NCBI GenBank assembly: GCA_044892525.1
Contig: CM097885.1
Coordinates: 240,932,001-240,996,000 of the forward strand
DNA: 64,000 nucleotides
Direction of reading: 5' to 3'
From: Schmidtea polychroa
Taxonomy: Eukaryota
Shown here: in pieces, positions 2,931 to 42,263 of the stretch
How positions within the stretch are numbered: the stretch's first letter is position 1
Layout: every line of letters begins with the position of its first letter
The notes under the pieces: model-generated
What the model was told of the DNA's origin: nothing
Databases searched by the model: none
The model's input: only the letters and a program-made list of their open reading frames with translations
Translations under genes and position numbers: made by a program

Positions 2931-3740
2931 AAGTTAAAATAAACATTTTATAAGTCAGTAAAAAATATTTTTTTTTTACCATATTTTCTATATCTATAAT
3001 ATAATAATAATAAATAATGAATTTTGTGAATTTAATATGTAATGTTTTCTTTTTCTTTTTTTCTAAATAAAAAAAAATTTTTATAATTACATGGTGTAAT
3101 ATGAATTACATGGTGTAATATGAACATGGTGTAATATGGTGAAATATGAAGCATTGTTGGTAAAAACTTTGAATCCGTAAATTATTTTTCAGAATTCTTT
3201 GAATATGTGTGTTTTAAATGTTTTTAAATTGAGATTAGAGTTGTTGTTTTCCGAATGATTTGAATGATTATTTTATAGATAATTTTGTTTATAAAATATT
3301 AAAAATGTCAATGGGTTACAGGAAATGAAAATAACACCCAATGGTGTTGTTTCCAGCGTAACCCAGTATGTAATGCTTCCATACCACTCGACACCAGTTG
3401 AATAAACAAAATCGTTAATGTGTCAAATTGGCGAAGTAGATGGATGGGTCACCGCTAAAGCAGGTCACCACTGGAACAAAGACATATACCCCCTCCCCCG
3501 GCCGAAGATTTTTTTAAAAAATATTTTTTGTAGAACAAAGACAATGACTCATCCGATGACTCATCAAAAAACAGGTTACCGCTGGAACAAAGACTTTTTT
3601 TTAAATATTAATATTATTATAATATTATAATATTAATATAAATATTATGACCTGTTTTTGGTCATGAAACAAGTTAGTGTTCCCATCATCCGATTTTATT
3701 AAACGATAGCTCATTTTAAAGCCTAGTGCAAGATCTATTT

Positions 3741-3808
<68 letters not shown>

Positions 3809-4107
3809 TTTATCATTAATATTTGGAAAGATTTTAACGCCCGCGCGGAAGATGTTATTTTCAAAATTATTATTATTATTATTATTATATATAGTCCGAC
3901 TTTATCCGAAAAAATATTTTGTCCCCCTATGGGTATTGCTCACAAAGGTACTACTCAAACTCANNNNNNNNNNNNNNNNNNNNNNNNNNNNNNNNNNNNN
4001 NNNNNNNNNNNNNNNNNNNNNNNNNNNNNNNNNNNNNNNNNNNNNNNNNNNNNNNNNNNNNNNNNNNNNNNNNNNNNNNNNNNNNNNNNNNNNNNNNNNN
4101 NNNNNNG

Positions 4108-4842
4108 ATTAAAGTTTTGGATCCGGATAACTCAAAACTACATAAATTGATCTCACGTATTCCTATGTCACGTCGTACAACTGCGCGTCGAATTGGCCAA
4201 ATTACCGAAAATGTTGAAAATAATTTGATGTGTGATTTAAAAAATTGTACAGCATTCAGTTTAGCTCTCGACGAGTCTACTGACATTCAGTATGTTCCAC
4301 AATTAGCCGTTTTTAAAAAAGCGGTTGGGGAATTGGAGTTATTAGATATGCAAGAGGACCAGGCTTTGCAAATGCACCATAAAGTTACTTCTATAATTGA
4401 ATTTTGGAAACTCGTACCAGAGGCAAAATATCCACACTTAAAACAAGCTGCTTGCCGTCTAATTTCAATTTTTGGTACAACATATTGTTGTGAATCTTTG
4501 TACTCCACAATGAAGTTCGTGAAGTCGAAATATCGTTCACAGTTGACCAATCAGCATCTTACAGAATTGCTGCGAACAGCTTTAACAAAGTATACACCAA
4601 ATTTCAAAGATTTGACCAAAAGTCTTCGTTAATTCAAGAAATTTTATTACTTTTTATTAATGGATTTTTATTATATTTTATGTTTGTTACTTAAATTTTG
4701 AAATAATTGTTTTTAATAGCGTTTAAGTCTTTTTTAATCAAATTAATGAAATAAAAAAAAATATGTAGTTCACTATGGTGGCTCTTTAAAAAATAAATTT
4801 TCGGAAAACGTCTCTCATTGAACTCATGCGTGCCCACCCTTG
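4108..4842 (+). mobile_element. Internally deleted hAT (Buster/Charlie, GTF2IRD2-like) element nested in the left arm of Maverick 1
   Basis: ORF reads IPMSRRTTARRI...FSLALDESTDIQYVPQLAVF, joined directly to the C-terminal dimerisation domain EFWKLVPEAKYPHLKQAACRLISIFGTTYCCESLYSTMKFVKSKYRSQL. Right TIR GTGCCCACCCTTG ends at 4842; the left end lies in the N-run. Confidence 0.9.
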
Positions 4843-5409
4843 ATATATATATATATATATATATACAAATTTATATAATTTTTGGTGCCTGCATTCACAA
4901 AATTAGACAAATAATATATAAAAAAATGAATACAAAGCTAAGATTTATTAACATGTAAATTAATATAAAAAACAATTATCATAGAAATTACACATAAATT
5001 AAAATAAAAATACCATTCTAAGATCATAAATAAAATAAATCTGAAAAACAGCATAAAATTTAACTAGTTAAAATTTTTAACCATTTAAATAAATCAAATT
5101 TTGATTTTGATGTCCACACTCGCATTCGCGGTCCTACTAAAATCAGCGAGTGTGAAATTATTTAAGTTGAATGATTGCTTTATTTTTATAGAATTGATTG
5201 CTTTAAACGATGCCTGTGCAACACAGAACCATTTTTTGAAAATATACAAGATCTGGTGGCCGCATAATAATTATTTTAAATTATTATAAAAATACTGAGA
5301 AATATTAAGTTTTCAAATAATACTTTATTGTTAAGTTTATTCATAAGCTTCATATTTAAATTATGTGAATATAATATCACTTTTTAATGCGAAATTTGCT
5401 TTTCTTTTG

Positions 5410-5740
5410 TTTTGGCAAGTTTAAAATTTGTAAGAGAACATTTGAGCTGGTCTTTGAGATTTTCGTCTTCTAGTGATCCTCGGTATTTTGACTTATTATG
5501 TTTTATTTTTGAAAAGAATATTTCGCACAAATATGCCGTACCAAGAAAATTAATAATTTTAAGTGCATTGAATCTTAATTTTGGAAACTATTTTCTATCA
5601 AAAATTTTTTTATAAAATTCAATTTTATCATGCGTTTGGAAGAGCTGTTCTAACTGGAAATTAACTTGCATGTATATAATCTCGAGTTGGTACTTATCTG
5701 GAACTATAATTGTTTATGAAGTTCCAAGCATTTTCAATCC
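5410..5740 (-). mobile_element. Second hAT C-terminal fragment nested in the left arm of Maverick 1
   Basis: Minus strand: YQLEII...FPKLRFNALKIINFLGTAYLCEIFFSKIKHNKSKYRGSLEDENLKDQLKCSLT, with one stop; hAT dimerisation domain. Confidence 0.8.
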
Positions 5741-5759
5741 CTCAACTTTTTCATCATCA

Positions 5760-5817
<58 letters not shown>

Positions 5818-5910
5818 GTTGTAGCACACACTCATTATACTAATTACCAATAGAAATATTGTATTCATGTTGTATCAAATAAAAACTCATATTTTTACTT
5901 TTATAATCTA

Positions 5911-5957
5911 TCAACCAATCAGAATCATATGATATTTCAGTAGTAGTAATATAAATA
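5911..5957 (+). promoter_or_regulatory. CCAAT box (TCAACCAATCAG) plus TATAAATA upstream of the chimeric ORF; mirror copy at 8827-8838 serves the Bcl-2-like gene
   Basis: The same 12-mer recurs, reversed, at 7209-7220 with TGAGTCA and TATAAAA upstream of ATG 7279. Confidence 0.55.
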
Positions 5958-5985
5958 AAACAGTATATTAAAAATTATTGTAAAA

Positions 5986-6450
5986 ATGTCTCAATTTATT
6001 GAAAATGTTCTAAACGGAATTGTCACCGCGAATATAGTCGACAGCCTCAATTTCCTGGTCAATCGAACCGAACAAATCATTGAACTTGAACATATCGATT
6101 ATCAGCAAATGATGGAGATGGAATGCCTGGAAACCAAGAAGTATTCAATAGAATATTTCAGTGTCTTGGATAATAATAAATTACAATATCGAATCAATAA
6201 TATTAAAATCCAATCAGTTACCGTTACTATGGATATGGGACATAGTATCAATATATATAACATGTCGAGAAAATGTGATTGTATGTTTGAACCGCAATTG
6301 TTTCCGACACTAAGACTATTAAAATATAACCGTATATGTGTCAACGTGTTTGTTAGTGGAAAGGTTGTCATGCTGGGGTTGAGAAATTTGGAGTATAGGG
6401 AATTTGTTAACAATGTTAGGAATAAGATATTTTCATTGGTCGATTTCTAA
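5986..6450 (+). CDS. Chimeric ORF: Bcl-2-like N-terminus (from the TIR) fused to a single TBP-fold repeat, 154 aa
   Basis: C-terminal half NIKIQSVTVTMDMGHSINIYNM...MFEPQLFPTLRLLKYNRICVNVFVSGKVVMLGLRN matches the TBP repeat consensus (FKIQNMVGSCD...YEPELFPGL...LIFVSGKVVLTG). The first ~60 codons are the inverted copy of the 8238-8763 gene start. Confidence 0.8.
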   Translation: MSQFIENVLNGIVTANIVDSLNFLVNRTEQIIELEHIDYQQMMEMECLETKKYSIEYFSVLDNNKLQYRINNIKIQSVTVTMDMGHSINIYNMSRKCDCMFEPQLFPTLRLLKYNRICVNVFVSGKVVMLGLRNLEYREFVNNVRNKIFSLVDF

Positions 6451-6505
6451 TTGGTTAATTTCTAATTGGTTAATGTTTGTTTTAAACAAACTGTTTTTTG
6501 TTTAG

Positions 6506-6930
6506 ATGTCATTTTTCAAAATGTACAAAATTCCAAGCGCCACTCGTTTGATGAAACAAATTGATAATTATGGTAAATTTTAGATTTATTATTTACATTT
6601 TTATAGTCTTTATTTTCAGATAAATATTCAGAAGTCATGTTAAATCGACTCAAGTATTTTTATCCCCAACTAAATGAAATTCTAAATGACCAAGAACCTG
6701 AGATTATTCCAGATCTCGTATTTTATGCAACCCAAATCAGGATATTAGAGGTGTTCCATCAATTCCTGTGGAGCATTAAGATAGATAGACAACAGAAAGA
6801 TATGGAACCGGAATACCAATGCATCATCGGATGCTCTTTCTGTGCCGATCGTTATCGGCGATATGTCGAGTGGGAATTAGTGAAAACTCTCAGAAGGTTT
6901 CACTATTCTCGAGTTGTAGATCTCGGGTGA
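6506..6930 (+). CDS. Spliced orphan ORF in Maverick 1 (exons 6506-6572 and 6620-6930), with a C-x3-C-x2-C motif
   Basis: A 47-nt GT..AG intron (6573-6619) joins MSFFKMYKIPSATRLMKQIDNY-D in frame to the listed 97-aa ORF. Confidence 0.6.
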
Positions 6931-7278
6931 TTGTATTAATAAATGTTTTATTGTGTTTTTATTGTTTTTTCTTTTATATATTTCAAATAATAGTAATATA
7001 AATAATAATAATAATAATAATTTGAGAATAATAATAATAAATAATAGTAATAATAATTTGAGAATAGTAATAATAAATAACATGACCCATTAATAATAAT
7101 AGAAATAGATTGAAAATAGTAATAATAAAACAATAATGATATGACACAGAAAATTAATGCAACATCAATGCAATTATGAATGCAATTTAAACAATGACAT
7201 GCTATAATCTGATTGGTTGATATGCATGAGTCAAAGGTATAAAAACCCTGTAACATTTCATTTTAATCATTATTCGCG

Positions 7279-7792
7279 ATGACCAAGATAATTTCAAGCA
7301 CCGAAAACCCTAAAGAAGAACTTGTACAACCGGATCAAATGTTCCACAGCTACAAAATGTATGTTTTAAAGGAAGAAATCAATATGAAATTGGTTGCCCC
7401 GGTCAAGCTTATTCCAACTCAATTTCATTTCTTATCCGGCACGCTTTCAATGATAGATGTTAAAACTATTGATGATGTTTTTAAACGGATAAATTCTAAT
7501 CTAGCATGTAATCAACATGCATGGTTCAACAACAGATATGCAAAATTTTATGATGCATTTGATGAAATCAGTTTCAAAGAAAATGAAAATTGGTAATATA
7601 ACAATTGCAATCCAGGGATATAAAGTTGATAATAATGATGTGTATTCTCCTATTTGGAAAATGATGTCTATTTTAATGTTATATTTAATGTATTTAATAA
7701 AAGTATTAGGCATATTTGTTTTTCTCTTTATTAACAAAGAAATTGCAACATTAATGAAAATGACATGCAAATTTAACAAAAAAAATCTATAA
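7279..7792 (+). pseudogene. Orphan ORF in Maverick 1 (105 aa to 7596; probable frameshifted continuation with a hydrophobic segment to 7792)
   Basis: ATG follows CCAAT, AP-1 and TATA motifs. An overlapping frame continues KIGNITIAIQGY...MMSILMLYLMYLIKVLGIFVFLFI. No family recognised. Confidence 0.5.
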
Positions 7793-7852
7793 ACAAACTT
7801 ATAATATAGTTTTAAAGTGATAAAAAATGACTGCAGAAAAAGGTTAGCATGA

Positions 7853-8188
7853 TTAATTAATTTCCGAATTATTTATAATTTAGAATTTGTAATCAACTTT
7901 TTGTTGGAAAAATTAGCCGAAATAGCTGGTGTAAAAATTGAGGATATATTATCTGTTGCAAATGCATTAAATATCGGCTGGGTAGTTGAGAGTCAAGATT
8001 CATGATTTGATGATCAGGAAGAATCTGATACTCAAGAAACCGATACCCAAGAAATTGATGAGGAAATCTGTGAACCTATAGATGAACTTATAGATACGGA
8101 AAATATTACGAATGATTGTGTAGATCATGTCGTTGAAAATGCAATGAAATGTGGAGATGATGATTGCGAATGTGTTAATAAATTTTAA
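7853..8188 (+). pseudogene. Acidic orphan reading frame with one internal TGA (8003-8005)
   Basis: Reads NLEFVINFLLEKLAEIAGVKIEDILSVANALNIGWVVESQDS*FDDQEESDTQETDTQEIDEEICEP...CGDDDCECVNKF*. Confidence 0.45.
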
Positions 8189-8237
8189 AATTGAATTGAA
8201 TTATTTGCATTCAAATATACTATTATAAACAATAACA

Positions 8238-8763
8238 TTAATTTTTATTCATATATCTACAAAAAATATACATTATAACAACTCCAGTTGCAAATTTTAT
8301 ATAGTTTGTCATTTTTCTTTTGATTTCATCAGTTTCTTTAGCATTGTGGGCAAGTTTATTTAATACACCCCATCCGCCACTGGCTTCTATCAAGGGGGTA
8401 AACTTGGACTTGATTATCTAGAAATGAATATTATTAAAATATATATAGACTATAAAAGAAATCTTACTTCTAAAGACTACTGATAATAATGTTCTGAGTC
8501 ATGTTGACTATTTGCAAAGATTATTTTCATGTAGGTGAATCCTACAATTATCCTTGTCCATTTCATGTCTTCATCGAAAAGACATTGAAATATTCTATTG
8601 AAGTAATACTTATTGGTTTCCAGGCATTCCATCTCCATCATTTGCTGATAATCGATATGTTCAAGTTCAATGATTTGTTCGGTTCGATTGACCAGGAAAT
8701 TGAGGCTGTCGACTTATTCGCGGTGACAATTCCGTTTAAAACATTTTCAATAAATTGAGACAT
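8238..8763 (-). pseudogene. Bcl-2-family gene carried by Maverick 1 (BH1, BH2, C-terminal membrane anchor; one intron; two lesions)
   Basis: BH1-like FNRIFQCLFDEDMKWTRIIVGFTYMKIIF, BH2-like PLIEASGGWGVL, tail anchor YIKFATGVVIMYIFCRYMNKN*. Phase-0 50-nt intron GTAAGA..TTTCTAG at 8467-8418. Lesions: 1-bp deletion near 8715 (intact in the left-arm copy) and TAG at 8479-8477. Confidence 0.8.
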
Positions 8764-10798
8764 TTTTACAATAATTTTTAATATACTGTTTTATTTATAT
8801 TACTACTACTGAAATATCATATGATTCTGATTGGTTGATAGATTATAAAAGTAAAAATATGAGTTTTGATTTGATACAACATGAATACAATATTTCTATT
8901 GGTAATTAGTATAATGAGTGTGTGCTAAAACTAATAATAATAATAATAATAATATCTTTTAATATATTTTAATATCTTTCCCAATATTAATGATAAAAAT
9001 AATATTTATATATCATTAAATAGATCTTGCACTATGCTTTAAAATGAGCTATCGTTTAATAAAATCGGATGATGGGAACACTAACTTGTTTCATGACCAA
9101 AAACAGGTCACCGCTGGAACAAAGACATTATATTTTTAAAATATTAATATTTAAAAAAAATAATGTCTTTGTTCCAGCGGTAACCTGTTTTTTGATGAGT
9201 CATCGGATGAGTCATCGTCTTTGTTCTACAAAAATTATTTTTTAAAAAAAATTTCGCCCGGGGGAGGGGGTATATGTCTTTATTCCAGCGGTGACCTGTT
9301 TTAGCGGTGACCCATCCATCTACTTGGCGATTATTAGTAAAAAGTGAGCTCACTCTGGTGAACTATAATTGGATAACATTCTTATGGATCCACGGACTAT
9401 TAATGGACGATATTTTTCCGATTTATTTCATGGTCCCTGTTATCGTTTAACGCTCAACGAAAAACATAAGAATTGTTAGAAAATTCGACCATAATTCATT
9501 TAAATTTTATTGTACACAAAAAATGTATTTAAGGCAAATTTATTCGGCCTGCAAACGGGTCACAGGTTGTTCTCCAATTCAGACTAAAACTCTGTTAGTC
9601 ATTATTGACCAAACGTTTTGAATTAATTAGTTAAACAAGCTTAACAATTTCATTAAAGTTCTGATCTATTTTAATTTATGTTTAACTACTATTTTTTAAC
9701 TACTATACTTAAAAGTTTTTAATTTATTATTCTGAAAAACCAAATTAATTTTGATCAGACTTATAAGCCTAAAACCCTATTTATGACATCGCTGACTAAA
9801 TTGCCCCATGAATTGGCTGCGCTTTTATACTCATTCTATAATTAAATTCTTTCCCAATCAAATTGATTTTGGGATTTTGAGACTCTCTCTCTCCAGGCTT
9901 TACATTCATCACCTAATTTGTTTTGAATTTCGAATATTTAGGTTTATGAACAATTCATTTATTTTTATGTTAATTTGCCCGAATTTAATTTACCGGTGGC
10001 TCTTTGTTCTCTCGGGTTTTGCTCATACCCCAATTTGGCCTAACCTAATTAAAAATTTTGTTGAATAATCGAATTTTTTCACACTGCTCTGGTTTCCCAT
10101 TAACTCGGGTTTTTAATTAGATAATTAATTTTTAATTAATTTTAGTTTTTTGTAAATATTTCCTTCTGGGGACTCCCCATTCATTTTATTTCATTATATA
10201 TGAATTCGTCTCATTGGTTTGTCATCCATCCATATCAGTTTCCTCCTGAAAATATTCATTTTAAATATTTTTGTACTTTTAATTATTATTGTGAATTTGA
10301 TGTTATTTATATTTTATTTTTGTGCCTATTTCATTAAACTCCAACAATATTATTTTTATGTTAATGATTTTTTGTGTCTGTTTTCTCAACTTTTAACTGT
10401 TTATTGGGTGTTTTCATATTGTTTGAGTTTAACTCGACTTAATGCTATGTTTTTCGTGTTTTATTACCCCCCTGCTTCTTCAAAATCCTCACAATTAGAG
10501 CTTTGTTTTATCGAATGTCAGTTTTGGCCCAATAATTTTATTAATTGATTGCAAAAATTATAAATGAAATGCTTATTAATAAAATATCATTTTAAAAGGT
10601 TTTAAAATAAATATTTTAAAAAATAGATTAATTTCAAAAATAATAATTAATTATTTAAATTGAATTGAAAAATGTTTTAAAATAATAAAATTTTTTAATC
10701 TGTTTATTAAATTTATAATATTTATAGATTTTTCTATCCTATATATAAGGATGACAGGAAAACTTTATTGTCTATTTAATAATAATAAATGTAACTTA

Positions 10799-12157
10799 GG
10801 TATAAGTATACAATAGGGGGGCCACTTTTTTATAAATAAATATATATAGATATAAATATTTAAATATATTAAAGTAATTAAAACATAGTATAGTTCAAGT
10901 ATATATATTAAAAAGACTATCAAGTTACGTTTATATTTACTTGGTATTACACACCACCAAAATCATATTTTTCACGTATTTGATTGATTAATACATCAAA
11001 CGCACGCTCATTTCGACAAAATCTTCTTCTCCACATGAATTCATCTAAGTACGAAGGAATGAAGCTACATCTAGTCCCAAACATATACTTAAATTTCCTT
11101 TTACATAAGGCCCACGAACCTTCTATTCCATTGGTGTTAACGCCGGTTAGGGGATCAATAAAGTGTTCCGAGTGATTCACCCACTGGTGTACATACGGTC
11201 CCAGTCTAGCTAAAGGTGTAGGTGCATTTGGGTTTCGTCGGGGACCACCAGTATAGGTCGAGAATTCATCGGTCCAAATAGTCGTTCCCGGAAGTACAAC
11301 ACGCGAAAAAATCGGAAAAATTTCTTTTTGGGTCCTATTATCAACGAATTCAAAATGTACATTCTTCGTAGTATAGTCTAGAATTCCGAAAACCCACCCA
11401 CTGCGGGCATTCCCTCTCGGTTCGCCACGATTATGCAGCAAATTCATTAACTTGGACTCATCCGCTTGCACTATATGATCTACTCCACCAAACAATAAAG
11501 GTTGAGATACTAACTTCCAACTGGCAATATCTCTGAAATACTGGTACCATTGAATTATAGTTTTTTTGGAAATATCGGTGAAAAGCTGAACTTGTTTAAT
11601 GGAGCATTCCGCGCCCCAAAAATACATCAATAGAAAAAGCTCACGAATATGCAGTTTTGAATTACAAAAAAAACTCCCGTTTGTAATTGTTTGCTTGATT
11701 CGATGAGGATTTACGCGTGCCCGACTCCGGCAAACAAATATATATTCATTTACGACTTTGGAATCTTTAACTAGTTCCATAATACGCCCGCATCTCGCGC
11801 AGGTTGGATCGGCTCGTAACAAACCTACACTTTGGCAATGTCTTATCAAAGACAGTGTGTCTCTTGAAAGTTCATATATTTGCTTTAAATTCATGGCCTC
11901 ATATTTATATATATATATACGTTAAAGATTAATTAAAACATCTTTTAAATAAGGATATNNNNNNNNNNNNNNNNNNNNNNNNNNNNNNNNNNNNNNNNNN
12001 NNNNNNNNNNNNNNNNNNNNNNNNNNNNNNNNNNNNNNNNNNNNNNNNNNNNNNNNNNNNNNNNNNNNNNNNNNNNNNNNNNNNNNNNNNNNNNNNNNNN
12101 NNNNNNNNNNNNNNNNNNNNNNNNNNNNNNNNGGCCCCCCTATTGTATACTTATACC
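10799..12157 (-). mobile_element. Merlin (IS1595/ISXO2-like) DNA transposon
   Basis: TIR GGTATAAGTATACAATAGGGGGGCC at both ends; exact 8-bp TSD GTAACTTA at 10791-10798 and 12158-12165. Confidence 0.95.
10947..11894 (-). CDS. Merlin/ISXO2-like DDE transposase, 315 aa, uninterrupted
   Basis: N-terminal CxxCG zinc ribbon; VQADESK, WVFG, IWTDEFSTY and HQWVNHSEHFIDPLTGVNTNGIEGSW...K motifs. Confidence 0.93.
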   Translation of the reverse strand: MNLKQIYELSRDTLSLIRHCQSVGLLRADPTCARCGRIMELVKDSKVVNEYIFVCRSRARVNPHRIKQTITNGSFFCNSKLHIRELFLLMYFWGAECSIKQVQLFTDISKKTIIQWYQYFRDIASWKLVSQPLLFGGVDHIVQADESKLMNLLHNRGEPRGNARSGWVFGILDYTTKNVHFEFVDNRTQKEIFPIFSRVVLPGTTIWTDEFSTYTGGPRRNPNAPTPLARLGPYVHQWVNHSEHFIDPLTGVNTNGIEGSWALCKRKFKYMFGTRCSFIPSYLDEFMWRRRFCRNERAFDVLINQIREKYDFGGV

Positions 12158-13960: not shown

Positions 13961-15414
13961 GTCCCGAAAAAGTTTTAAAGGAGACTCGACTGGTCTCAAC
14001 AGGTTTCTTAACTACATTTCAATAATATAGAAAAATATAATATGACAACACCGAACTATACATATGTAATACTACNNNNNNNNNNNNNNNNNNNNNNNNN
14101 NNNNNNNNNNNNNNNNNNNNNNNNNNNNNNNNNNNNNNNNNNNNNNNNNNNNNNNNNNNNNNNNNNNNNNNNNNNNNNNNNNNNNNNNNNNNNNNNNNNN
14201 NNNNNNNNNNNNNNNNNNNNNNNNNNNNNNNNNNNNNNNNNNNNNNNNNNNNNNNNNNNNNNNNNNNNNNNNNNNNNNNNNNNNNNNNNTTCATTTTACG
14301 ATATAGAATAATTATAATCTAAATTATAATCTAAATAATAAATCATTTTTAATTTGTAATAAATATATATATATATATTTTCAAAAATTGAAATTTAAAA
14401 ATTATTTAATTTAATAATCTAATACGTTTAAAAAGAACAATACAATATTATTTTTTATATTTCATCTAATCCATAGTTAGGTGTAAATTTTATAAAAATA
14501 AATTTTACTAAATTTATAAAATCTCCTAAATCTATTTTTAGTAACTAAATAGACGTCAGCTTAATTTTGTAGAAGACTTCGATTTTCTAATTCTAATTTT
14601 CGGGCTACGATAAAACTAAGGCAACTGATTGTCAAGTTGCTATTGGTCAGTGTGTTGAATCATTGTCCAGGAATAATGCCACATGTATACTGATCACTTT
14701 TTTTAAATTTATTCAATTGAGCTTAGCTAGACTTTATTAATAAGATTTTATTCAAAAATTCTATAATTTAATGATTTGATTTTCAGTTTTTACACATATT
14801 ATTTACGAATTTATTGGTAAAAAGTTTTGATTTTCATTAAATAATATTTCTGATACATACAGGCATCAGACATCAACACCCATCTGTGTGTATGAGAAGC
14901 AGACGATTTCTATTGGCTACTTAAAATTCATAAGAGAAAATTCATAGTTCTGAATGTGAAAAAAATATCCAAGATAAAATTGAGTGTTTCAAAATGAAGT
15001 AATGAAGATTTCATCAAATTTCTGCTTGCAAATAAATTTTACTCATTGTTTATTTGTAAGCAAAAATCAATTACCATTCGTGTGGAATTAATACCATCTG
15101 TTCAATTCGTTTCGTGAAAATTGTTGGAAATGCACTGAAGAATTTATTGGAAAAAAACTCGAAAGAATTACAATTTCTTCCTAACTTGTAGGATAGACGG
15201 AAATTTTCTTTGCTAAAATGCAAATTTCTCTTGAATTTTAGTTAATAATGACGTGGTATTTTTTATATTAGTAATTATTAATATTTTAGCGTGTGCATAC
15301 AAACTGAATTTTGTGTATGAAATGAAATGATTGATAAATGTTTATCTAACGATGCTTATATATTGTTACACCAATGGAATATAAATCATTTTGCATCTAA
15401 GAATTCTGAAGAAA

Positions 15415-16213
15415 ATGTCTAATTGCAAATCTCAACTGACAGATTTTGATTTCATTCGAATTTCAACTCCAGATTTAAACGGTTGTCACTTGTCAAAGCT
15501 TATCTCATCGCAACTTGCTCAACGTATTAAAAACAACGAAGTTGATTTATATGGTGGTGCTATAGCGCTAGGTCCAAGAACCCAATATGTGGCCATTGAT
15601 GAATTTAAAGAAAATAAATCCCGAAATGCTTTCTTTTTTCCCGACATGGACACTTTAAAACCAATCAAATGGGCAGACGATTTGGAGAGAGATTTCCATG
15701 TCGGTGATGTCATAGCAGACATGAAATGGGATGAAACGAGTCCAGTTGAATTTCATCCTCGAATTGTTGCAATAAAACAAATCCAGCGACTGGAAAAAAT
15801 GGATTTGGAATTATTTTCCGCTTTTGAACCAGAATTTAGGGCTTTTAAATTAGATTCATTTGAACCGTTTACTACTGGATTGGACATGAATAAAACGACA
15901 ATGCTAGCAAAATATGAAAAGTTTTTCATGGATTCTGTCACAAAACTTGCTGTAGCCGGTATAGACATACAGGATTGTTGCATTGAACATGGTGAAGGTC
16001 AGTTAGAAATGCCTTTATTACCCTCTTTTGGAATTTCTGCTGCTGATAAAGCTTTTCGATTCAAGCAAGGTATAAAGGAATTGGGTAAACATCACCAAAT
16101 GACTATAAGCTTCATGACAAAACCGTTTTTATCGGAGTCGAGCAGTGGCAATCATTTCAATCATTCATTATGGTATAAATCAACAAAGAGGAATGCTATG
16201 TTTGACGTAAAAG
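15415..16213 (+). CDS. Type-I glutamine synthetase / lengsin-like gene, exon 1
   Basis: FIRISTPDLNG...K, AFEPEF, IEHGEGQLE, FRFKQGIKE, FMTKPF..SSGNHFNHSLW. ATG at 15415; donor AAG|GTATGC, phase 1. Confidence 0.9.
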
Positions 16214-16305
16214 GTATGCAATATCTTTGATGAATATTGTATTTTAGTATCATAATAATATTTAAATATTGAGAACAAGTATAATTTCCTACAAATTAAA
16301 TCATA

Positions 16306-17474: not shown

Positions 17475-18811
17475 TATAATATTATTTTGTATACTACAAC
17501 ACAACTTTACCGGGCTCATAGAAATGGATAAAGACTAAAATTAACTTCTAGTTCATGGTTTACGACTGTTGTCATTTTGTTTTATTTTATTATTCAAATA
17601 TGGTTTATAGTATGAATTTTTAAATTTTAATCAAGAATTTCAATAACTGCCAAGGGGTATTTACATATGAAAAGGTTTTGACAGTTTCGTGCTGTAACTT
17701 TTGGGGGCCCTGTGTAGATACTAAAAACGTTTCTTTTAATTTTATCGCATTCATTTTTATTGATTTTAATTAAAAGAAATAATACAAAGAAATTATAAAG
17801 CAATTTTTCAAGTTTTTGAAAAAAATAACAGAATTATTAGGTATACTTGTTTCAAATTAAATCGTAGCCAATTAGATTTGTTTGAAAGTTAAATGAATTT
17901 TGAATTTCCATCTTTGGTTTTTCTTTCAATTCGACAATTTTTTTTGCTATTGGAGAAGTTTTCATAATGTATTTAATATTTGGGGCCCAGTGCGATTGGA
18001 CTTGCAATAGCGTACGGCGCTGGATTTTGCACGAGTTTTGTTCATTACGAATTACAAGAAATATCTAAACGAAAATATATTTCTATTAATGATGCGTTAT
18101 GNNNNNNNNNNNNNNNNNNNNNNNNNNNNNNNNNNNNNNNNNNNNNNNNNNNNNNNNNNNNNNNNNNNNNNNNNNNNNNNNNNNNNNNNNNNNNNNNNNN
18201 NNNNNNNNNNNNNNNNNNNNNNNNNNNNNNNNNNNAGTAGATGGATTGGGCACCGCGAAACAGGTCACCGCCAGCACAAAGACATTTTTTACCCCACCCC
18301 CCCCCCCCGGCCGGAAAAATTTTTAAAATTTTTTTTTTCAACTTGAGAACAAAGACATATGACTCATCCGATGACTCATCAAGCATTCAAGGTAGACTTG
18401 AGAACAAAGACATATGACTTATCAATGATATATAATTATTATTATTTTTAAAAATATTATTATTTCTAATGTCTTTGTGTTCGCGGTGACCTACTATTTG
18501 GCCTGCTAAAAGTTATTGTTCCCATCAACTTATTTCATCGATCGATAGCGTATTTTGAAGCTTGGTGCAAGACCTTTCGAATGAGCTATTGCTGTNNNNN
18601 NNNNNNNNNNNNNNNNNNNNNNNNNNNNNNNNNNNNNNNNNNNNNNNNNNNNNNNNNNNNNNNNNNNNNNNNNNNNNNNNNNNNNNNNNNNNNNNNNNNN
18701 NNNNNNNNNNNNNNNNNNNNNNNNNNNNNNNNNNNNNNNNNNNNNNNNNNNNNNNNNNNNNNNNNNNNNNNNNNNNNNNNNNNNNNNNNNNNNNNNNNNN
18801 NNNNNNNNNNN

Positions 18812-21288
18812 CTCCGAGTTTATCCGACAAAATATTTTATCCCCCTATGGGTAATGCTCAAAAGGGTACTGCCCCGAGTTTATCCGACAAAATATTTTCT
18901 CCCCCTATGGGTACGGCTCACAAGATTTTGTGTAAATCGTTGATTATATTATTTTTTTTGTTTTAATTATCAATTACATAATAATTTCGTTTTGTTTAAA
19001 TCGTTGATTATATTATTTTTTTGTTTTAATTATCGATTATGTTTGTTTAAATTATCGAATATGTAATAATTTAATTTTGTTTAAATCGTTGATTATATTA
19101 TTTTTTTTTGTTTTGATTATCGATTATGTTTGTTTAAATTATCGAATATGTAATAATTTAATTTTGTTTAAATCGTTGATTATATGATTTAATTTTGTTT
19201 AAATCGTTGATTATATTTTTTTTTGTTTTAATTATCAATTACACAATAATTTCGTTTTGTTTAAATCGTTGATTATATTATTTTTTTTTGTTTTGATTAT
19301 CGATTATGTTTGTTTAAATTATCGATTATGTAATAATTTAATTTTGTTTAAATCGTTGATTATATTATTTAATTTTGTTTAAATCGTTGATTATATTATT
19401 TTTTTTTGTTTTAATTATCAATTACACAATAATTTCGTTTTGTTTAAATCGTTGATTATATTATTTTTTTTTGTTTTAATTATCGATTATGTTTGTTTAA
19501 ATTATCGATTATGTAATTATTTAATTTATCATTATTATTGGGAAAGATATTAACGNNNNNNNNNNNNNNNNNNNNNNNNNNNNNNNNNNNNNNNNNNNNN
19601 NNNNNNNNNNNNNNNNNNNNNNNNNNNNNNNNNNNNNNNNNNNNNNNNNNNNNNNNNNNNNNNNNNNNNNNNNNNNNNNNNNNNNNNNNNNNNNNNNNNN
19701 NNNNNNNNNNNNNNNNNNNNNNNNNNNNNNNNNNNNNNNNNNNNNNNNNNNNNNNNNNNNNNNNNNNNNNNNNNNNNNNNNNNNNNNNNNNNNNNNNNNN
19801 NNNNNNNNNNNNNNNNNNNNNNNNNNNNNCTCCGAGTTTATCCGACAAAATATTTTATCCCCCTATGGGTAATGCTCAAAAGGGTACTGCCCCGAGTTTA
19901 TCCGACAAAATATTTTCTCCCCCTATGGGTACGGCTCACAAGATTTTGTTTAAATCGTTGATTATATTATTTTTTTTTTTTAATTATCAATTACATAATA
20001 ATTTCGTTTTGTTTAAATCGTTGATTATATTATTTTTTTGTTTTAATTATCGATTATGTTTGTTTAAATTATCGAATATGTAATAATTTAATTTTGTTTA
20101 AATCGTTGATTATATTATTTAATTTTGTTTAAATCGTTGATTATATTATTTTTTTTTGTTTTAATTATCAATTACACAATAATTTCGTTTTGTTTAAATC
20201 GTTGATTATATTATTTTTTTTGTTTTGATTATCGATTATGTTTGTTTAAATTATCGATTATGTAATAATTTAATTTTGTTTAAATCGTTGATTATATTAT
20301 TTAATTTTGTTTAAATCGTTGATTATATTATTTTTTTTTGTTTTAATTATCGATTATGTAATTATTTAATTTATCATTATTATTGGGAAAGATATTAACG
20401 NNNNNNNNNNNNNNNNNNNNNNNNNNNNNNNNNNNNNNNNNNNNNNNNNNNNNNNNNNNNNNNNNNNNNNNNNNNNNNNNNNNNNNNNNNNNNNNNNNNN
20501 NNNNNNNNNNNNNNNNNNNNNNNNNNNNNNNNNNNNNNNNNNNNNNNNNNNNNNNNNNNNNNNNNNNNNNNNNNNNNNNNNNNNNNNNNNNNNNNNNNNN
20601 NNNNNNNNNNNNNNNNNNNNNNNNNNNNNNNNNNNNNNNNNNNNNNNNNNNNNNNNNNNNNNNNNNNNNNNNNNNNNNNNNNNNNNNNNNNNATACTCCG
20701 AGTTTTTCCGACAAAATATTTTATCCCCCTATGGGTAATGCTCAATAGGGTACTGCCCCGAGTTTATCCGACAAAATATTTTCTCCCCCTATGGGTACGG
20801 CTCACAAGATTTTGTTTAAATCGTTGATTATATTATTTTTTTTGTTTTAATTATCAATTACATAATAATTTCGTTTTGTTTAAACCGTTGATTATATTAT
20901 TTTTTTGTTTTAATTATCGATTATGTTTGTTTAAATTATCGAATATGTAATAATTTAATTTTGTTTAAATCGTTGATTATATTATTTAATTTTGTTTAAA
21001 TCGTTGATTATATTATTTTTTTTTGTTTTAATTATCAATTACACAATAATTTCGTTTTGTTTAAATCGTTGATTATATTATTTTTTTGTTTTGATTATCG
21101 ATTATGTTTGTTTAAATTATCGATTATGTAATAATTTAATTTTGTTTAAATCGTTGATTATATTATTTAATTTTGTTTAAATCGTTGATTATATTATTTT
21201 TTTTTGTTTTAATTATCGATTATGTTTGTTTAAATTATCGATTATGTAATTATTTAATTTATCATTATTATTGGGAAAGATATTAACG
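18812..21288 (+). repeat. Three ~1-kb higher-order units (two palindrome cassettes plus AT-rich minisatellite AAATCGTTGATTATATTATT...), separated by N-runs
   Basis: Near-identical blocks at 18812-19555, 19830-20400 and 20694-21288, each ending GGGAAAGATATTAACG; a shorter inverted version lies at ~27470-27910. Confidence 0.9.
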
Positions 21289-21960
21289 NNNNNNNNNNNN
21301 NNNNNNNNNNNNNNNNNNNNNNNNNNNNNNNNNNNNNNNNNNNNNNNNNNNNNNNNNNNNNNNNNNNNNNNNNNNNNNNNNNNNNNNNNNNNNNNNNNNN
21401 NNNNNNNNNNNNNNNNNNNNNNNNNNNNNNNNNNNNNNNNNNNNNNNNNNNNNNNNNNNNNNNNNNNNNNNNNNNNNNNNNNNNNNNNNNNNNNNNNNAG
21501 TTTATCCGACAAAATATTTTGTCCCCCTATGGGTATTGCTCATATGGGTAATGGTCAAAAGTGTACTACTCACATTCAACATGTCTCAAAGGGCATAATA
21601 TAATTATTATTAAATTCTGACCAACTTAAATCAATGAAGGGGTAGAACAAAAATATATTACGTTGCGGTATTTTAAATTTAAAAATATTTTTAAAACTTA
21701 TTTTGACACTAAAGTTTACTTATTTAACAAAGACATAATTATTGCACATGCCTTGCATAAATATTATTATTTTTTAAATTTTCAATATTTCTTTTAAAGT
21801 CTTAACACGCGCGGAAGTTATTATTATTATTATTATTATTAGTGAAAAATCTAAAATATTTTCTACACACACACACAACCCATTAAACTTTATTATGATT
21901 ATTATCAATATCAGTCAAAAACCTAAAATATTTTTTACACACATATACAACTCATTAAAC

Positions 21961-22029
<69 letters not shown>

Positions 22030-22060
22030 TTCAAAGAATTATTTTCAAAATTTTTATCAA

Positions 22061-22111
<51 letters not shown>

Positions 22112-22138
22112 CTCCTAGTCTATGTTAACAAAAGGTAT

Positions 22139-22290
22139 TTAACTTGCTCAATTTGTAAAGAAAATCAAGTTTCGGTTTTGTATTTACCGTGCGGTCACGT
22201 AATTGTTTGTTCTAAGTGTCACGAGAAGAATGTTCACAATTGCCAAGCTTGTTCAACACAGATTAATGAATATCATACTATATATATATG
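22139..22290 (+). pseudogene. IAP-type C3HC4 RING finger fragment inside Maverick 2
   Basis: LTCSICKENQVSVLYLPCGHVIVCSKCHEKNVHNCQACSTQINEYHTIY = C-x2-C-x11-C-x-H-x3-C-x2-C-x7-C-x2-C. No start codon; begins just after the arm junction. Confidence 0.8.
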
Positions 22291-22421
22291 TAAGTTCTCA
22301 ATATTATATCAAATGAATTATGGTAATGGATTATGACCGGAAAAATTAACAAATAATATGAAATCACCTTGGTAATTAAATATATGGGGCGCAACTACCA
22401 AATGGTGATGAAGGAATACCC

Positions 22422-22553
22422 ATGAGTTCATCAAAATGGGAAAAAGATCTTCGCAAGAACCATGAAGATGCTCGAAAAGTAGAAAAAACCCTAACAAATA
22501 TTTTAAAGTTGAAATTATGTGTTACAGTAGTATTGGTTATTATTGTTTCGTAA
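22422..22553 (+). CDS. Short ORF with a C-terminal hydrophobic tail (43 aa), possibly a gene remnant
   Basis: MSSSKWEKDLRKNHEDARKVEKTLTNILKLKLCVTVVLVIIVS*. Confidence 0.3.
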   Translation: MSSSKWEKDLRKNHEDARKVEKTLTNILKLKLCVTVVLVIIVS

Positions 22554-25500
22554 ATAAATGTTTTAATTTGTTTTTATAAATTTATTGTTTTATTGTAATA
22601 CTTTTTGATTAAAACATATTCATTTTGTTTTAATATTTGTATTAATTTTTTAAATAGTGTTATTTATATATGGAAATTTACAATTATATATTATATACAA
22701 TTATATTTACAATTATATTTACAATTATTATAAATCATAATGATGGTTTTCTTCTGTTCATTGATTCTCCTCTGATTTTACTGCCATAATCATTTTCGAC
22801 AAAATGCAAATATAATATTTCTAGTGTCTTTGTTAATCATGCCCATTTATTGCAAAGTATTTGTTAATTATGCACTTGTATTGCAAATTTATTAGTCATA
22901 CAATTATATTATTTTTTCATGTCCTGACATAATATTATTATTTTTAATTTTATTATTATTTTGTTTAACAATACCATATAGCAAATTTTTAGGCAATTTA
23001 GTGAAATGTTATTTTAAATATAGGAATTTCTTAAGTAAAATAGATAAATTAACCTATTTAGTTAGAAATCCCTGGTTTTTGGCTGAACCATTTAATTAAA
23101 ATATTCTAGGATTCATAACAAATATTTTGATATAGTTGATACATATACCAATTATTTCAATTATTTAACTAGAAACATAACTGAATTCTTAGGTAATATA
23201 GTATTTTTTAGTGAATTTATAAATATTATCTGACATTTTGATGTATTTGACAACAAATTAATCAATAAAGACCATAGCATATTGTAAGTTTTTATATATA
23301 GTCTGAATTTATCCGACAATATATTTTGTCCCCCTATGTGTATTTGTCGTAAGGGTACTGCTTACATTCAACATGTCGCAAGGGTATATTAATTAAAGCA
23401 TATGTATATTAATTATTCTTAGGCAATTTAGTGAGAAATGGATGATCATAGATATCAGAAATTCGTGAATATTTTGAATGTAACTTACCGAATTCTCATT
23501 TCGAGCGACTAATTTATTGGTTAAATTTTTCATGTTTAGTCATTTAAAATAATATTTAGCAAAAGGTAAGATATGAATATTTAGTATTTCATAGGTAATT
23601 TATTCATCTAATGTTCATTACAATAGTTAATATAACTTCGTGAGAAATGTATGGTTATTAATATATTCATGGATATTTTTGGTAGAAAGTCTTTATCATT
23701 TGGAGTAAATTTCTGTCTATGTTCGAGACAAAAAAGAGACATAATAGAAATATGATCATTTGGTTATCATTTAACCAATTAAGGTGCTTATTAGTTAGAA
23801 ATATAGGGTTACAATTCTTTTCTAATTTAATGAGATGATCATAGGGTGTAATATATCTTTTTTGAGAAATACATGGTTAACATTTTTAAATAGGGATTTT
23901 GAGTAACCAAAACAGGGATATTTTGTGCGAATAATTTAAGAATATTGGTTAATTTTCTCTTTTTTAGTCATTTAAAATAATATTTAGCAAAGGTAATTTA
24001 GCAAAATATCATTGAAGGATTTATCCATCCGATAATAATATTCCTTCAATAGATTTTACCCTTTATTCAACCGATTTAATTTCTAGAAATCTAATTAAAA
24101 TCATAAAATTCCTTCAATAAAGATAAATTTTCTTTAGCGGTTGTCGATTTCCAACTTTTAAGTCAATATTTCTCAAGTTTTGTCACTGATATCCCCACAA
24201 TGACTAAAATAACTTTTTAAATAAAATAATTTAAAGCAATAACCTTTGATATCAATCCCAATTAATTCTAAAGATTTCAAATATTTCATTGTGAAAACCA
24301 AGTCAATTGATCATTAACCCTAAACGACTTAATAAAACAGTGGATAATTAATAAAAAACTTGTTCTAAAACATAAATTACTGTGCAATAACATTCATCAC
24401 AGCCTAATAAACGATATAATTTCACAGGAGCTATTATTAATTCATAGCTGACTATTTCCCTTTAAAATTTTACCAATAAGAACATTGTCGATTTAAATAG
24501 AGATTTCAAACATTTCCACCTTAACCAATCCCTCACCAAATATTTCTACCATTTTAAACACCCCCCCCCCTTAAAAATCATATATTACCATCTTAACCAA
24601 CCGACTTTAATATATCAGCCCTTTAATATATCAATTCTCTTAAATCCATAGAAAATTCATCAAAATATGAATATTATTTAATTGTTTCAGACATCCCTCC
24701 ATTGAAATAATTTAGTATCTAAATTCATGTAGTAAAAGCCCACTAAAAGATCAAATTTACTAAAATCAATATTTTCTACAAATATTTCGCCACATTTACC
24801 ATCAAATACCTAACTAGAGATGAAATATATTGTTTGATCATAATTCTTCATCGATTCAGCTAATTATATAGCAATTATAACGTGATATATCTTTCAAAAT
24901 CACAAATTTCAGTATATTTTACAATAATTTTTACAAAAATTAAATAATGATCACTTGATTATTGTAAAAACTCTAATTATTAACCTAACTGTCATTAAAA
25001 ATAATTTTTATTTAAAATTAAATTTAAAAACAAGTCAATAAAATATAGCAAATTATCAAGAAATTAATTAAATTTGTCTTAGAATTAACACTAAAACGTT
25101 AAATTTCAAAATATTCTTTCAATTATTCACAAAAAGGTTAGTAATAATGTTAGTAAAATCCCGCTAACTCTAAAAATTACCAATGAATTTAATGCTAAAT
25201 AATAACCAAAAATTTGCCTAAATAAAATCATTAAAACATCCCAGTACCATTACGACCAGTACCCTTACGAGCAGTACCAATTGTGAACAGTACCCATAGA
25301 GGGAGAAAATATCTTGTCGGATAAACTCAGAGTATATATAATAAAACGAATTAACAATAACTCCATCAAATTGAATCAGTCAAATTAACACAAATTTTGA
25401 TAAAAAAATCATATTCTAAAATGGTAAGAAGCGTAAAGTCGAAAGATAATTTTAATAACACCGAGATAAATTAACAATATCATTCTCAGGTGGTAAGGAT

Positions 25501-26045
25501 CTTTAAATGCATTTAAAAAAATGCATTCAAAATGCATTTATCATAATTAAATAAATCAATCAAATATTCAATAGAGGAATGTTTGAAAATTTTTAAAATA
25601 TTTATGATTTCCTTATCAGTGTAAGTATCGTGATTATTTATAAAAGCTTCAACTGTGCTGTTAAAAAATTTCAATGAACGCTTATCTTCGGAATAGGTTG
25701 GACTTAATTTTTCCATATTTCTAGTAGGACTTATATAAAAAATATTGACAAAATAATAAAGTTACTAAATGTGTTTTGTGATTTACACAATCATATTCAT
25801 ACTTGTAGAAATCATCAGTAATAAATAAATTTCTTAATAACTAAATTACTTTTGTTTTTACATTTATAAAAATTGAGATAGCCAATCAAATTAGTGTTTT
25901 ATAAAATGTAGAAATTGTAACCATGGTTGAACAATAATAATAATAAGCACGACTAGTACCCTTGCAACCTGTTGAGTGTGAGCAGTACCCATAGGGGGGA
26001 CAAAATATTTTGTCGGATAGACTAGGAGTATATATAATAATAATA

Positions 26046-26076
<31 letters not shown>

Positions 26077-26371
26077 AAATAAGAAATTTGAAGATAATTT
26101 TGAAAATGATAATAATAATATTTTATAAATAAAATAAGAATTTTGAAGAAAATAATCATGAAAATTATGAAAATGTTAAAAATAATGAAAATATAGAAAA
26201 TGATGAAAATGTTGAAAATGATGAAAACGTTAAAAATTATGGAAATGATCCTGAAAATAATCATCAAATATTGAAAATCGTAAAATGGTGCAGAAATTAA
26301 GTTTTATGAATATTTAAGTAAATAATGATAATGAAACTTCTACAATAAAATAATAATTAGAATTTTGCAAA

Positions 26372-26402
<31 letters not shown>

Positions 26403-26652
26403 AATATTGATAAAAATTTTGAAAATAATTCTTAGAAAATAATACTTTGAAAAATATTTGATGAAAAGTTCCTGAAATAATCATGAAAATGTTGAAAATC
26501 GTGAAAATATTGAAAATGTAGAAAATTATTAAAATATTCATGCAAATGATGAAAATGTTGAAAATCATGAAATTGACGTAAAAATTATGTTTTATAAATA
26601 TTTAAGTAAATAATAATAATGAAACTTCTAAAATAATAGTTAGAATTTTGCA

Positions 26653-26697
<45 letters not shown>

Positions 26698-26834
26698 GTT
26701 TAATGAGTTGTATATGTGTGTAAAAAATATTTTAGGTTTTTGACTGATATTGATAATAATCATAATATAGATAATAATAATAATAAAGTTTAATGGGTTG
26801 TGTGTGTGTGTAGAAAATATTTTAGATTTTTCAC

Positions 26835-26874
<40 letters not shown>

Positions 26875-27920
26875 TTCCGCGCGTGTTAAGACTTTAAAAG
26901 AAATATTGAAAATTTAAAAAATAATAATATTTATGCAAGGCATGTGCAATAATTATGTCTTTGTTAAATAAGTAAACTTTAGTGTCAAAATAAGTTTTTA
27001 AAATATTTTTAAATTTAAAATACCGCAACGTAATATATTTTTGTTCTACCCCTTCATTGATTTAAGTTGGTCAGAATTTAATAATAATTATATTATGCCC
27101 TTTGAGACATGTTGAATGTGAGTAGTACACTTTTGACAATTACCCATATGAGCAATACCCATAGGGGGACAAAATATTTTGTCGGATAAACTNNNNNNNN
27201 NNNNNNNNNNNNNNNNNNNNNNNNNNNNNNNNNNNNNNNNNNNNNNNNNNNNNNNNNNNNNNNNNNNNNNNNNNNNNNNNNNNNNNNNNNNNNNNNNNNN
27301 NNNNNNNNNNNNNNNNNNNNNNNNNNNNNNNNNNNNNNNNNNNNNNNNNNNNNNNNNNNNNNNNNNNNNNNNNNNNNNNNNNNNNNNNNNNNNNNNNNNN
27401 NNNNNNNNNNNNNNNNNNNNNNNNNNNNNNNNNTTGAAAATAATAATAATAATTTTGAAAATATTCCGCGCGGGCGTTAATATCTTTCCCAATAATAATG
27501 ATAAATTAAATAATTACATAATCGATAATTTAAACAAACGTGATCGATAATTAAAACAAAAAAAAATAATATAATCAACGATTTAAACAAAACGAAATTA
27601 TTGTGTAATTGATAATTAAAACAAAAAAAATAATATAATCAACGATTTAAACAAAATCTAGTGAGCTGTACCCATAAGGGGAGAAAATATTTTGTCGGAT
27701 AAACTCGGGGCAGTACCGTTTTGAGCATTACCCATAGGGGGATAAAATATTTAAAATAAAATATAATATAATCAACGATTTAAACAAAATCTAGTGAGCT
27801 GTACCCATAGGGGGAGAAAATATTTTGTCGGATAAACTCGGGGCAGTACCCTTTTGAGCATTACCCATAGGGGGATAAAATATTTTGTCGGATAAACTCG
27901 GAGTATATAGATTAATACTC

Positions 27921-27992
<72 letters not shown>

Positions 27993-28980
27993 TCTTGGGA
28001 AAATGTTAATAACTTTGCCAATATTAAAGATGGTGATGACAACAATAGCGCATTCGAAAGGTCTTGCACCAAGCTTCAAAATACGCTATCGATCGATGAA
28101 ATAAGTTGATGGGAACGATAACTTTTGGCAGGCCAAATAGTAGGTCACCGCGAGCACAAAGACATTAGAAATAATAATATTTTTAAAAATAATAATAATT
28201 ATATATCATTGATGAGTCATATGTCTTTGTTCTCAAGTCTACCTTGAATGCTTGATGAGTCATATGTCTTTGTTCTCAAGTCTACCTTGAATTCTTGATG
28301 AGTCATCGGATAAGTCATATGTCTTTGTTCTCAAGTTGAAAAAAAAAATTTTTTAATTTTTCCGGCCGGGGGGGGGGGGGTGGGGTAAAAAATGTCTTTG
28401 TGCTGGCGGTGACCTGTTTTCGCGGTGCCCAATCCATCTACTGAAATTACATTTTTAATATTCAAAATTATATTTAATTTTCAAATTATTATATAATCAT
28501 GGATTTAGATTACATATAAGAAACTAAATCAAATAGTCGGGAAATCGAAGAAATCGTGACAGGTTATTTTTTGAAAAATCTTCCGAATGTGGCTTGTTTT
28601 GCTTTTATATTCTATTACTTAACAAACTCGTAGTAGGTAGATTCTGTCTCACAAGTGCTAGTCCTAAGGGTTATGGCGCCCGATGGCTTTATTGGTACTA
28701 TATATATATACATTCATTAGAAACTATAAAACAATAAATAAAGAATATACTTCAGTGCTTTTAATTAATATTATTTCTTTTCAATTGATATTGTATTTAT
28801 TAAAAAACATCGATATATTTACTGATTCATAGTCAAGATTTTTAATAAATACAATGAATAATGTTAAACTAAGTATTTCTTTACTTAAATAATTTTTAAT
28901 AATTTCTTACAATTTTTAAATGTAGCAGTCTCAGAGGTGGTTTATTTTATTTAAAATTCAGGAAATAATATAAGTATTCA

Positions 28981-38800: not shown

Positions 38801-39268
38801 AAGGGTTCTGAACCTTTTCTGAGAATAAGGAAAAATAAGAACAAATCAGAACATAATTAATTAATATTATTTTATTTTTTATTATTACAGCCAGCCATTT
38901 CAAAAATCAATAATTCGTGTTAAATAAATTAAAAATAGTCTAAAGAAATTATGATAAATTTAAATGCAATATACCGGCTCATGTCAAACAACGAGAAATT
39001 GTTTTGAAAATTAGAAAATAAGTAAAATAGTTACAAAAAATTTGTTATTTGCGAAATAAAATTATTTTATATATCTTATTTGGAACCCATATTATAATAT
39101 ATTTAATGAATAATAAACAAATATTTTAATTACAATGAAAAAAATTCATCAAAAATTTGTTCTTGCCCCCAGAATTAAATAAAAGTTGAATTTTATAGAA
39201 ATTTATTTATCTTATAATCTTAAATATTAATTATAAATAATTTTTTAATTTAATATTAAATTTAATAG

Positions 39269-41891: not shown

Positions 41892-42263
41892 CATTTTTAA
41901 TTAATGAATCAAAAATTATCATCAAAAACAAGTTCGTCGAATGCAAATTTATCGAGTGCACGTTCGTCGAATCAGAAGTTCGTCGAAAAAACATATATAC
42001 TCAAAGTTTATCCGAAAAAATATTTTGTCCCCCAATGGGTATTAGTCATAATGGTACTGGTCACACTCAACATGTTGCAAGGGTAAATTAATATTATTAT
42101 TATTATTAGCTGCACTTAAATTAGTCAAAACAAATATTTTTTCGATGAACTTGTAATTTGATTAATTTGTTCTTGTTTTTCGATAAATTTGTTATTCGAT
42201 GAATTTGCATTCTATGAAATCGTTTTCGATGAACTCGTTGGTTACCATTTTTAATTAATGAAT
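41892..42263. mobile_element. MITE-like element with imperfect inverted TTCRTCGAA repeats enclosing one palindrome cassette
   Basis: Left TTCGTCGAA repeats (41930-41990) and right TTCGATGAA repeats (42140-42235); direct repeat CATTTTTAATTAATGAAT at 41892 and 42246. Confidence 0.5.

Follow-up and report, generated by a model that had tools for sequence, protein, structure and literature searches.

An inverted partial gene copy and a Bcl-2-like/TBP-like fusion frame in a non-autonomous, probably Maverick-derived element of Schmidtea polychroa

The stretch of DNA analysed here (the window: 64,000 nucleotides of Schmidtea polychroa, positions 240,932,001 to 240,996,000 of contig CM097885.1, assembly GCA_044892525.1) contains, at 3435-9324, an element in which the start of a Bcl-2-like gene is found twice, in inverted orientation, once near each end. 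The left copy runs directly into the second half of a gene for a protein resembling TBP. How did the beginning of one gene come to lie at the opposite end of the element, and is the fused reading frame that results a gene in its own right? A preliminary description of the locus had proposed that the terminal inverted repeat (TIR) grew inward. We tentatively favour a different event, to which we give a probability of about 0.45: the inner repeat would be a templated patch, anchored in TTA tracts and placed at a large internal deletion, with the right end copied onto the left while the core was deleted.

The element is one 5.9-kb insertion with ends of the Maverick/Polinton type. Inverted repeats of approximately 390 bp are present at both termini (3431-3823 vs 9328-8933, 85.7% with gaps by blastn), and AGTAGA forms the first and last bases. 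The end motif occurs four times in the window and in none of 100 shuffles; AGTAGA is seen at all four element ends in the window. A target-site duplication (TSD) of 6 bp flanks the element (coordinates of all features are in Table 1). An empty-site paralog of the target is located near 56300-56550 on the minus strand; it is colinear with both element flanks and has a single copy of the 6-mer. The two flanks score 67 and 94 against this paralog, while the maxima in random stretches were 42 and 36, and none of the 300 stretches reached either flank score. The TSD and the colinear empty site thus identify a single insertion despite a run of N inside it. The window holds 11 such runs, one of which hides part of the left spacer of the element. 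A further paralog of the target repeat is found at 41450-41512 (+).

TIRs of 100-1,500 bp and TSDs of 5-8 bp are given for Maverick/Polinton elements (PMC10748475), and a 6-bp TSD, AGT-type ends and mostly defective copies for Mavericks (PMC8097293). The element agrees with them in TIR length and in its 6-bp TSD. Its ends resemble the AGT type, but AGTAGA is one base off (AGT)2 (agreement at 5/6 bases); the reference motifs (AGT)2, (AG)3 and (AC)3A are those of vertebrate Mavericks. It differs in that it has no intact protein-primed polymerase (PolB), integrase or capsid frame, and in the partial gene copy, inverted and joined to a TBP repeat, that it carries. The longest frame in the element free of both N and stop codons is 163 amino acids (aa), hence no intact polymerase or integrase is present. 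No protein-primed PolB or retroviral-like integrase family was detected among the scanned open reading frames (ORFs); no dedicated profile search for degraded fragments was made. Only small cargo genes are retained. Adintoviruses have been described with Bcl2 and IAP homologs among their cargo (PMC8502044), and TBP appears as a gene label in figure legends for adintovirus-related viruses. The features of the element point to a non-autonomous derivative of probable Maverick/Polinton origin, not a full member of the class.

Inside the TIRs is a second pair of inverted copies, 5795-6167 and 8954-8579, which blastn aligns over 377 columns at 97.3% identity. Both contain CCAAT at -71 and TATAAAT at -36 from an ATG, motifs that mark a putative promoter, then the ATG itself and 182 nucleotides (nt) of coding sequence. 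The preliminary description, which spoke of near-identical inverted copies including a promoter and some 180 nt of 5′ coding sequence, is borne out here. Five substitutions separate the copies between the edge of the TTA tract and the junction with the TBP-like gene. In addition, the right copy lacks 1 nt at 8714, and the left copy lacks 4 nt after 6143. At the 1-nt site the homologs P0002 and P0003 read like the left copy, at the 4-nt site like the right one. The lesions of the two copies are therefore complementary, each copy having its own indel, as had also been claimed. That the two indels are the only lesions is ruled out by an additional in-frame stop at 8477-8479 in the gene of the right copy; P0002 and P0003 both read on at this point. 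The 1-nt gap and the stop thus each make the Bcl-2-like gene of the right copy a pseudogene. A GT-AG intron of 50 nt is predicted at 8467-8418.

The likeness to Bcl-2 is supported but weak. The fragment matches Pfam PF00452 (Bcl-2) with E=7e-4 and 20.6 bits, below the cut-off of 31.4 bits; the homologs P0002 and P0003 score 20.4 and 18 bits against the same profile. A match to BAK has E=0.1, and P0002 gives an Atlas value of 0.93 to Bcl-2 clusters. The open Bcl-2-like piece is identical to P0002 at 71/78 positions. The left part ends before the region aligning to the conserved BAK motif.

Only the right inner copy adjoins its TIR. The left copy is split off from the left TIR by 3824-5760, a spacer of approximately 1.9 kb with no match in 6168-9324, and the proposed inward growth of the TIR is not confirmed. 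As it stands, the repeat is not a continuous extension of the TIR. The unmatched spacer carries two fragments of hAT transposase. By tblastn the first of these aligns to residues 134-207 and 505-616 of P0159. The second covers residues ~500-610 of a transposase of ~610 aa, and its match stops approximately 50 nt from the (TTA)n tract. The hAT comparison used 46 of 76 fetched transposases. Searching with the second fragment alone gave 0 of 27 candidates, and the other fragment was used as the query instead. No clear match to a hAT end near the edge between the second fragment and the TTA tract was observed among the inverted repeats. On both sides of the element the outer edge of the inner copy is a TTA tract.

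We favour the template-switch patch because 1.9 kb lie between the left copy and the left TIR, a TTA tract is present at both sites and the second hAT fragment ends within about 50 nt of the tract. The event would have begun with a broken end in the left part, inside a hAT fragment that had already inserted. Using the (TTA)n tract close to the right terminus for priming, this end would have been extended by an inverted copy of roughly 350 nt that covers the putative Bcl-2-like promoter and the 5′ coding sequence. A short microhomology would then have allowed rejoining midway through the TBP-like gene, with loss of the replication core. Each inner copy would then have acquired small lesions of its own; the 4-nt gap on the left happens to bring the second TBP repeat into the reading frame of the Bcl-2-like start, and the fusion would have gone on to decay. 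The Leu codon at the junction (6167/6168) would imply a putative microhomology of 2-3 nt. The seven bases that follow the junction are found again in the template, 25 nt farther on; the chance of this in random 60-nt stretches is 0.005, calculated post hoc. The inner copies differ at 5/355 sites and the TIR blocks at 10/285, a direction that fits an inner patch younger than the ends.

Several observations weigh against this patch. The difference in divergence between TIR and inner copies is not significant (p=0.11). The decay of the TBP half exceeds what either arm clock allows (p=0.0003 if the inner copies set the rate, 0.009 if the TIRs do); decay above both clocks means that it began before the insertion, and copying of a whole arm is the simpler explanation for that. 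A subterminal piece kept on the left seems to have been lost from the right arm, which may therefore once have mirrored the whole left arm. Finally, hAT similarity does not extend significantly into the 50 nt that precede the TTA tract.

Such copying of a whole arm is the main alternative. Protein-primed strand-displacement replication would have copied the right end, from the TIR to inside the Bcl-2-like gene, onto the left. The product, a defective genome of panhandle form, would have been mobilised in trans, with its arms homogenised. Later hAT insertions on the left and a deletion from TTA to TTA on the right would have broken the symmetry of the arms. The accompanying truncation would account for a TBP half more decayed than the divergence of the arms would suggest, the arm clocks do not differ significantly, and the window holds another element with these ends that has long inner inverted arms of its own (21499-22060 vs 27192-26591, 90.5%). 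However, the present arms are discontinuous and extra events are needed, among them a deletion that cut the second hAT fragment right at the TTA tract. The TIR arms also diverge more than the inner arms and carry several indels. A duplicated arm continuous with the terminus on both sides is not what we observe, although the discontinuity could be secondary. We consider this alternative somewhat unlikely. The idea in the preliminary description that one end was copied onto the other by template switch fits, in an element with ends of the type found in protein-primed replicons. But the left arm is not continuous with the terminus, its outer boundary is a TTA microsatellite beside a cut hAT fragment, and panhandle copying during protein-primed replication is one of two readings. 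In copy-back or panhandle defective viral genomes, and in adenovirus end duplications, one end is present twice in inverted form and the genes of the other end are lost. The element differs from these in that its arms are interrupted and it is chromosomal.

Alternatively, long gene-containing TIRs with a Bcl-2-like gene at both ends may be native to the parent family. The position 6167/6168 would then be the breakpoint of a simple internal deletion, for which microhomology alone suffices, and no new duplication would be involved. There is a precedent in the Pieris and Euchloe polintons, butterfly elements with ~2-kb TIRs that hold two copies of hexon and adenain, thus inverted repeats including coding genes with two copies per insertion (10.1101/2025.02.07.637071). 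There, whole core genes are duplicated in full-length mobile elements; the present element is a relic in which half of a cargo gene is doubled. Between TIR and Bcl-2-like promoter the two sides have wholly different sequences, and the related element 18236-28442 is without a Bcl-2-like copy (no blastn match). Native long TIRs are in our judgement improbable.

The junction on the left creates an open frame that begins with about 60 residues from the Bcl-2-like start, the last few codons of which are read in a shifted frame, and ends at the natural end of the TBP-like gene. Residues 72-135 match Pfam PF00352 (TBP) with E=1e-10 and 41.8 bits (cut-off 22.9), and TBP structures in the PDB match the fusion down to 2.4e-9. 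The intact TBP-like parent has 145 aa and two repeats. It belongs to a family of short TBP-like proteins (the P0001 cluster, ~145-150 aa, with a reduced first repeat), for which 110 clusters were found at E<=1e-10 and 675 at E<=0.001. In the fusion the first TBP repeat of this family is replaced; one repeat stretch is present, compared to two in P0001, and the two-repeat saddle is absent. Both parents are known as separate proteins, P0001 and P0008 (a six-member TBP cluster) on one side and P0002 and P0003 on the other. The TBP half is closest to P0008, with which it shares 86/94 residues and the same C-terminal end.

Could this frame be a selected functional fusion, in which a TBP of one repeat, preceded by a helical leader, is expressed from the Bcl-2 promoter and acts as a dominant-negative or altered transcription factor? 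The frame is open from the native start to the native TBP end, the promoter motifs are intact, and it is the 4-nt gap of the left copy that holds the frame open across the junction. The stop positions, however, give a chance of about 1 in 10 that one random small indel would keep the frame open. Using 61 of 150 TBP-family representatives, we found 20 of the 94 columns to be at least 80% conserved. Four of the eight differences from P0008 fall in these 20 columns; among the intact relatives the corresponding counts are 0/6 for P0001 and 0/4 for P0004. The fusion thus looks unselected, and we reject purifying selection on it. The change in the TBP half lies far above the constrained rate of the family (p=2e-5) and agrees with neutral change (p=0.06). 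The neighbouring cargo genes are broken too. No fused protein was seen among 3 matches from 15 candidates (lengths 84-270 only), the exact fusion sequence is absent from the protein collection, and none of the 150 TBP representatives matched the Bcl-2-like query. A single-sequence fold prediction of the fusion has a mean predicted local distance difference test (pLDDT) score of 30.6, too low to be informative. We regard a selected function as highly improbable; the fusion is best read, from its loss of conserved residues, as a decaying by-product. The suggestion that the locus shows a route to new chimeric genes therefore stands in part: an in-frame Bcl-2-like/TBP ORF was made, so fusions can arise, but the ORF bears the marks of decay and not of selection, and it does not show the gain of a new gene.

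An assembly artefact, with the left inner copy a mis-joined duplicate and the small indels consensus errors, is barely credible even in a region rich in repeats and microsatellites and with 11 N runs in the window, since the copies differ by five substitutions and two indels with derived states on both sides by comparison with homologs, and the TSD and the empty-site paralog tie the two ends together. Of 16 sequencing runs listed, 8 contain part of the stretch, none of them half or more, and no RNA run is listed among them, which is evidence neither for nor against.

A close parallel to the templated patch is the Goblin MITE (a miniature inverted-repeat transposable element), derived from the Tc1/mariner element Ozma, for which abortive gap repair, template switch and microhomology joining have been proposed (PMC3814204). 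It too is non-autonomous and has lost the core, and sequence from just inside one of its ends is present again, inverted, at the opposite end; with TIRs of 54 bp, its own extension is short, and it runs on from the end without a break. Here, in contrast, the copied segment is ~350 nt, stands apart from the left TIR, is microsatellite-anchored and yields a fused ORF, and the parent is of Maverick type, a class not known to undergo excision-gap repair. Precedents exist for defective Mavericks, for Bcl-2 as cargo, for Polinton TIRs that contain genes and for duplication by template switch. We found no report of this element or of a Bcl-2/TBP fusion in the open-access literature. In viral contigs, pattern searches for relatives of P0001 and P0002 gave 4 and 18 matches, none confirmed; relatives of P0001 gave 145 matches in metagenome contigs, also none confirmed. 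The element end motif was found 0 times in viral and metagenome contigs.

Three further candidate genes lie between the fusion and the Bcl-2-like pseudogene (Table 1). The ORFs starting at 6637 and 7279 have no exact record in the protein collection. The probable spliced gene at 7830-8188 has a TATAAAC motif at -42.

Table 1. Features of the element at 3435-9324 and its target site (positions in the window)
Feature	Position	Strand	Basis or remark
Target-site duplication, 6 bp, left copy	3429..3434	+	6-mer identical to 9325-9330
Left TIR, begins AGTAGA	3435..3823	+	blastn and end motif
Family subterminal sequence, kept on left only; N run next to it	3824..3963	+	matches 18236-28442, 23289, 25269, 41993
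hAT (GTF2IRD2-like) transposase fragment 1, internally deleted	4108..4841	+	Pfam PF05699 1.7e-9; right end ~4841 read from the letters
hAT transposase fragment 2, C-terminal ~110 aa only	5387..5710	-	tblastn 1e-15, full-length hAT proteins
(TTA)n tract at outer edge of left inner copy	5761..5817	+	
Left inner copy: first 182 nt of Bcl-2-like coding sequence behind a putative promoter with CCAAT/TATA-type motifs; 4 nt missing after 6143	5813..6167	+	
Open 154-aa fusion ORF: ~60 aa from Bcl-2-like start and 94 aa TBP-like to natural end	5986..6450	+	no internal stop
Second repeat (3′ part) of TBP-like gene, decayed	6168..6450	+	
97-aa ORF	6637..6930	+	open, no Pfam family
105-aa ORF behind ATTGG/TATAAAA (CCAAT/TATA-type) motifs	7279..7596	+	open, no Pfam family
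Probable small spliced gene, acidic end, in-frame stop 8003-8005	7830..8188	+	no Pfam family
Bcl-2-like pseudogene: exon 1 8763-8468 (1-nt gap 8714, stop 8477-8479), exon 2 8417-8238	8238..8763	-	
Right inner copy (proposed template): part of Bcl-2-like gene and putative promoter	8579..8936	-	
(TTA)n tract between right inner copy and right TIR	8932..8952	-	
Right TIR	8960..9324	-	inverted match to left TIR
Target-site duplication, 6 bp, right copy	9325..9330	+	6-mer identical to 3429-3434

The second element, 18236-28442, has the same end motif and TIRs approximately 69% similar to those of the first; its left flank is N. Its inner inverted arms are bounded near TTA tracts, of which the element has many, and several tandem units of ~1 kb are present in the left arm. 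At 22106-22336 (+) a C3HC4 RING piece (Pfam PF13920, 1e-10), which we take to be IAP-like, is joined directly to a subterminal repeat of this element, a second mid-gene junction. The inner inverted arms and this RING/subterminal junction show that such rearrangement recurs in the family, but not when it took place. A subterminal motif of ~100 bp is dispersed at 23289-23393, 25269-25360 and 41993-42092, the last of these outside both elements.

Elsewhere in the window, an open ORF of 315 aa at 10947-11894 (-) encodes an ISXO2/IS1595-like transposase (Pfam PF12762, 1e-13). The frames at 15385-16230 and 39241-39795 (+) may be the two halves of a glutamine-synthetase-like gene, in an intron of which the second element would lie. 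An open frame of at least 1,482 aa at 59553-64000 (+), with Gag-like zinc knuckles by eye and an A-rich strand, is probably a large long terminal repeat (LTR) retrotransposon.

As a single relic, the element at 3435-9324 is of modest interest, a clear worked example of a virus-like transposon collapsing to a non-autonomous form. It indicates that, in collapsing, such an element can join two unrelated cargo genes in frame. It would be more important if many insertion sites shared the junction: rearranged Mavericks would then be shown to replicate in trans, and there would be a testable model of defective-interfering genomes for a class of elements whose replication has hardly been observed. A broader proposal, which we regard as a long shot, is that the non-autonomous Mavericks of this animal behave as copy-back defective-interfering genomes. 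TTA tracts close to both ends would then serve, as these genomes replicate in trans, as sites of repeated template switching that join promoters and gene starts from near the ends to internal genes (the Bcl-2 start onto TBP, the subterminal repeat onto the RING gene piece), and the fusion, multi-copy and transcribed, could interfere with the TBP of the helper.

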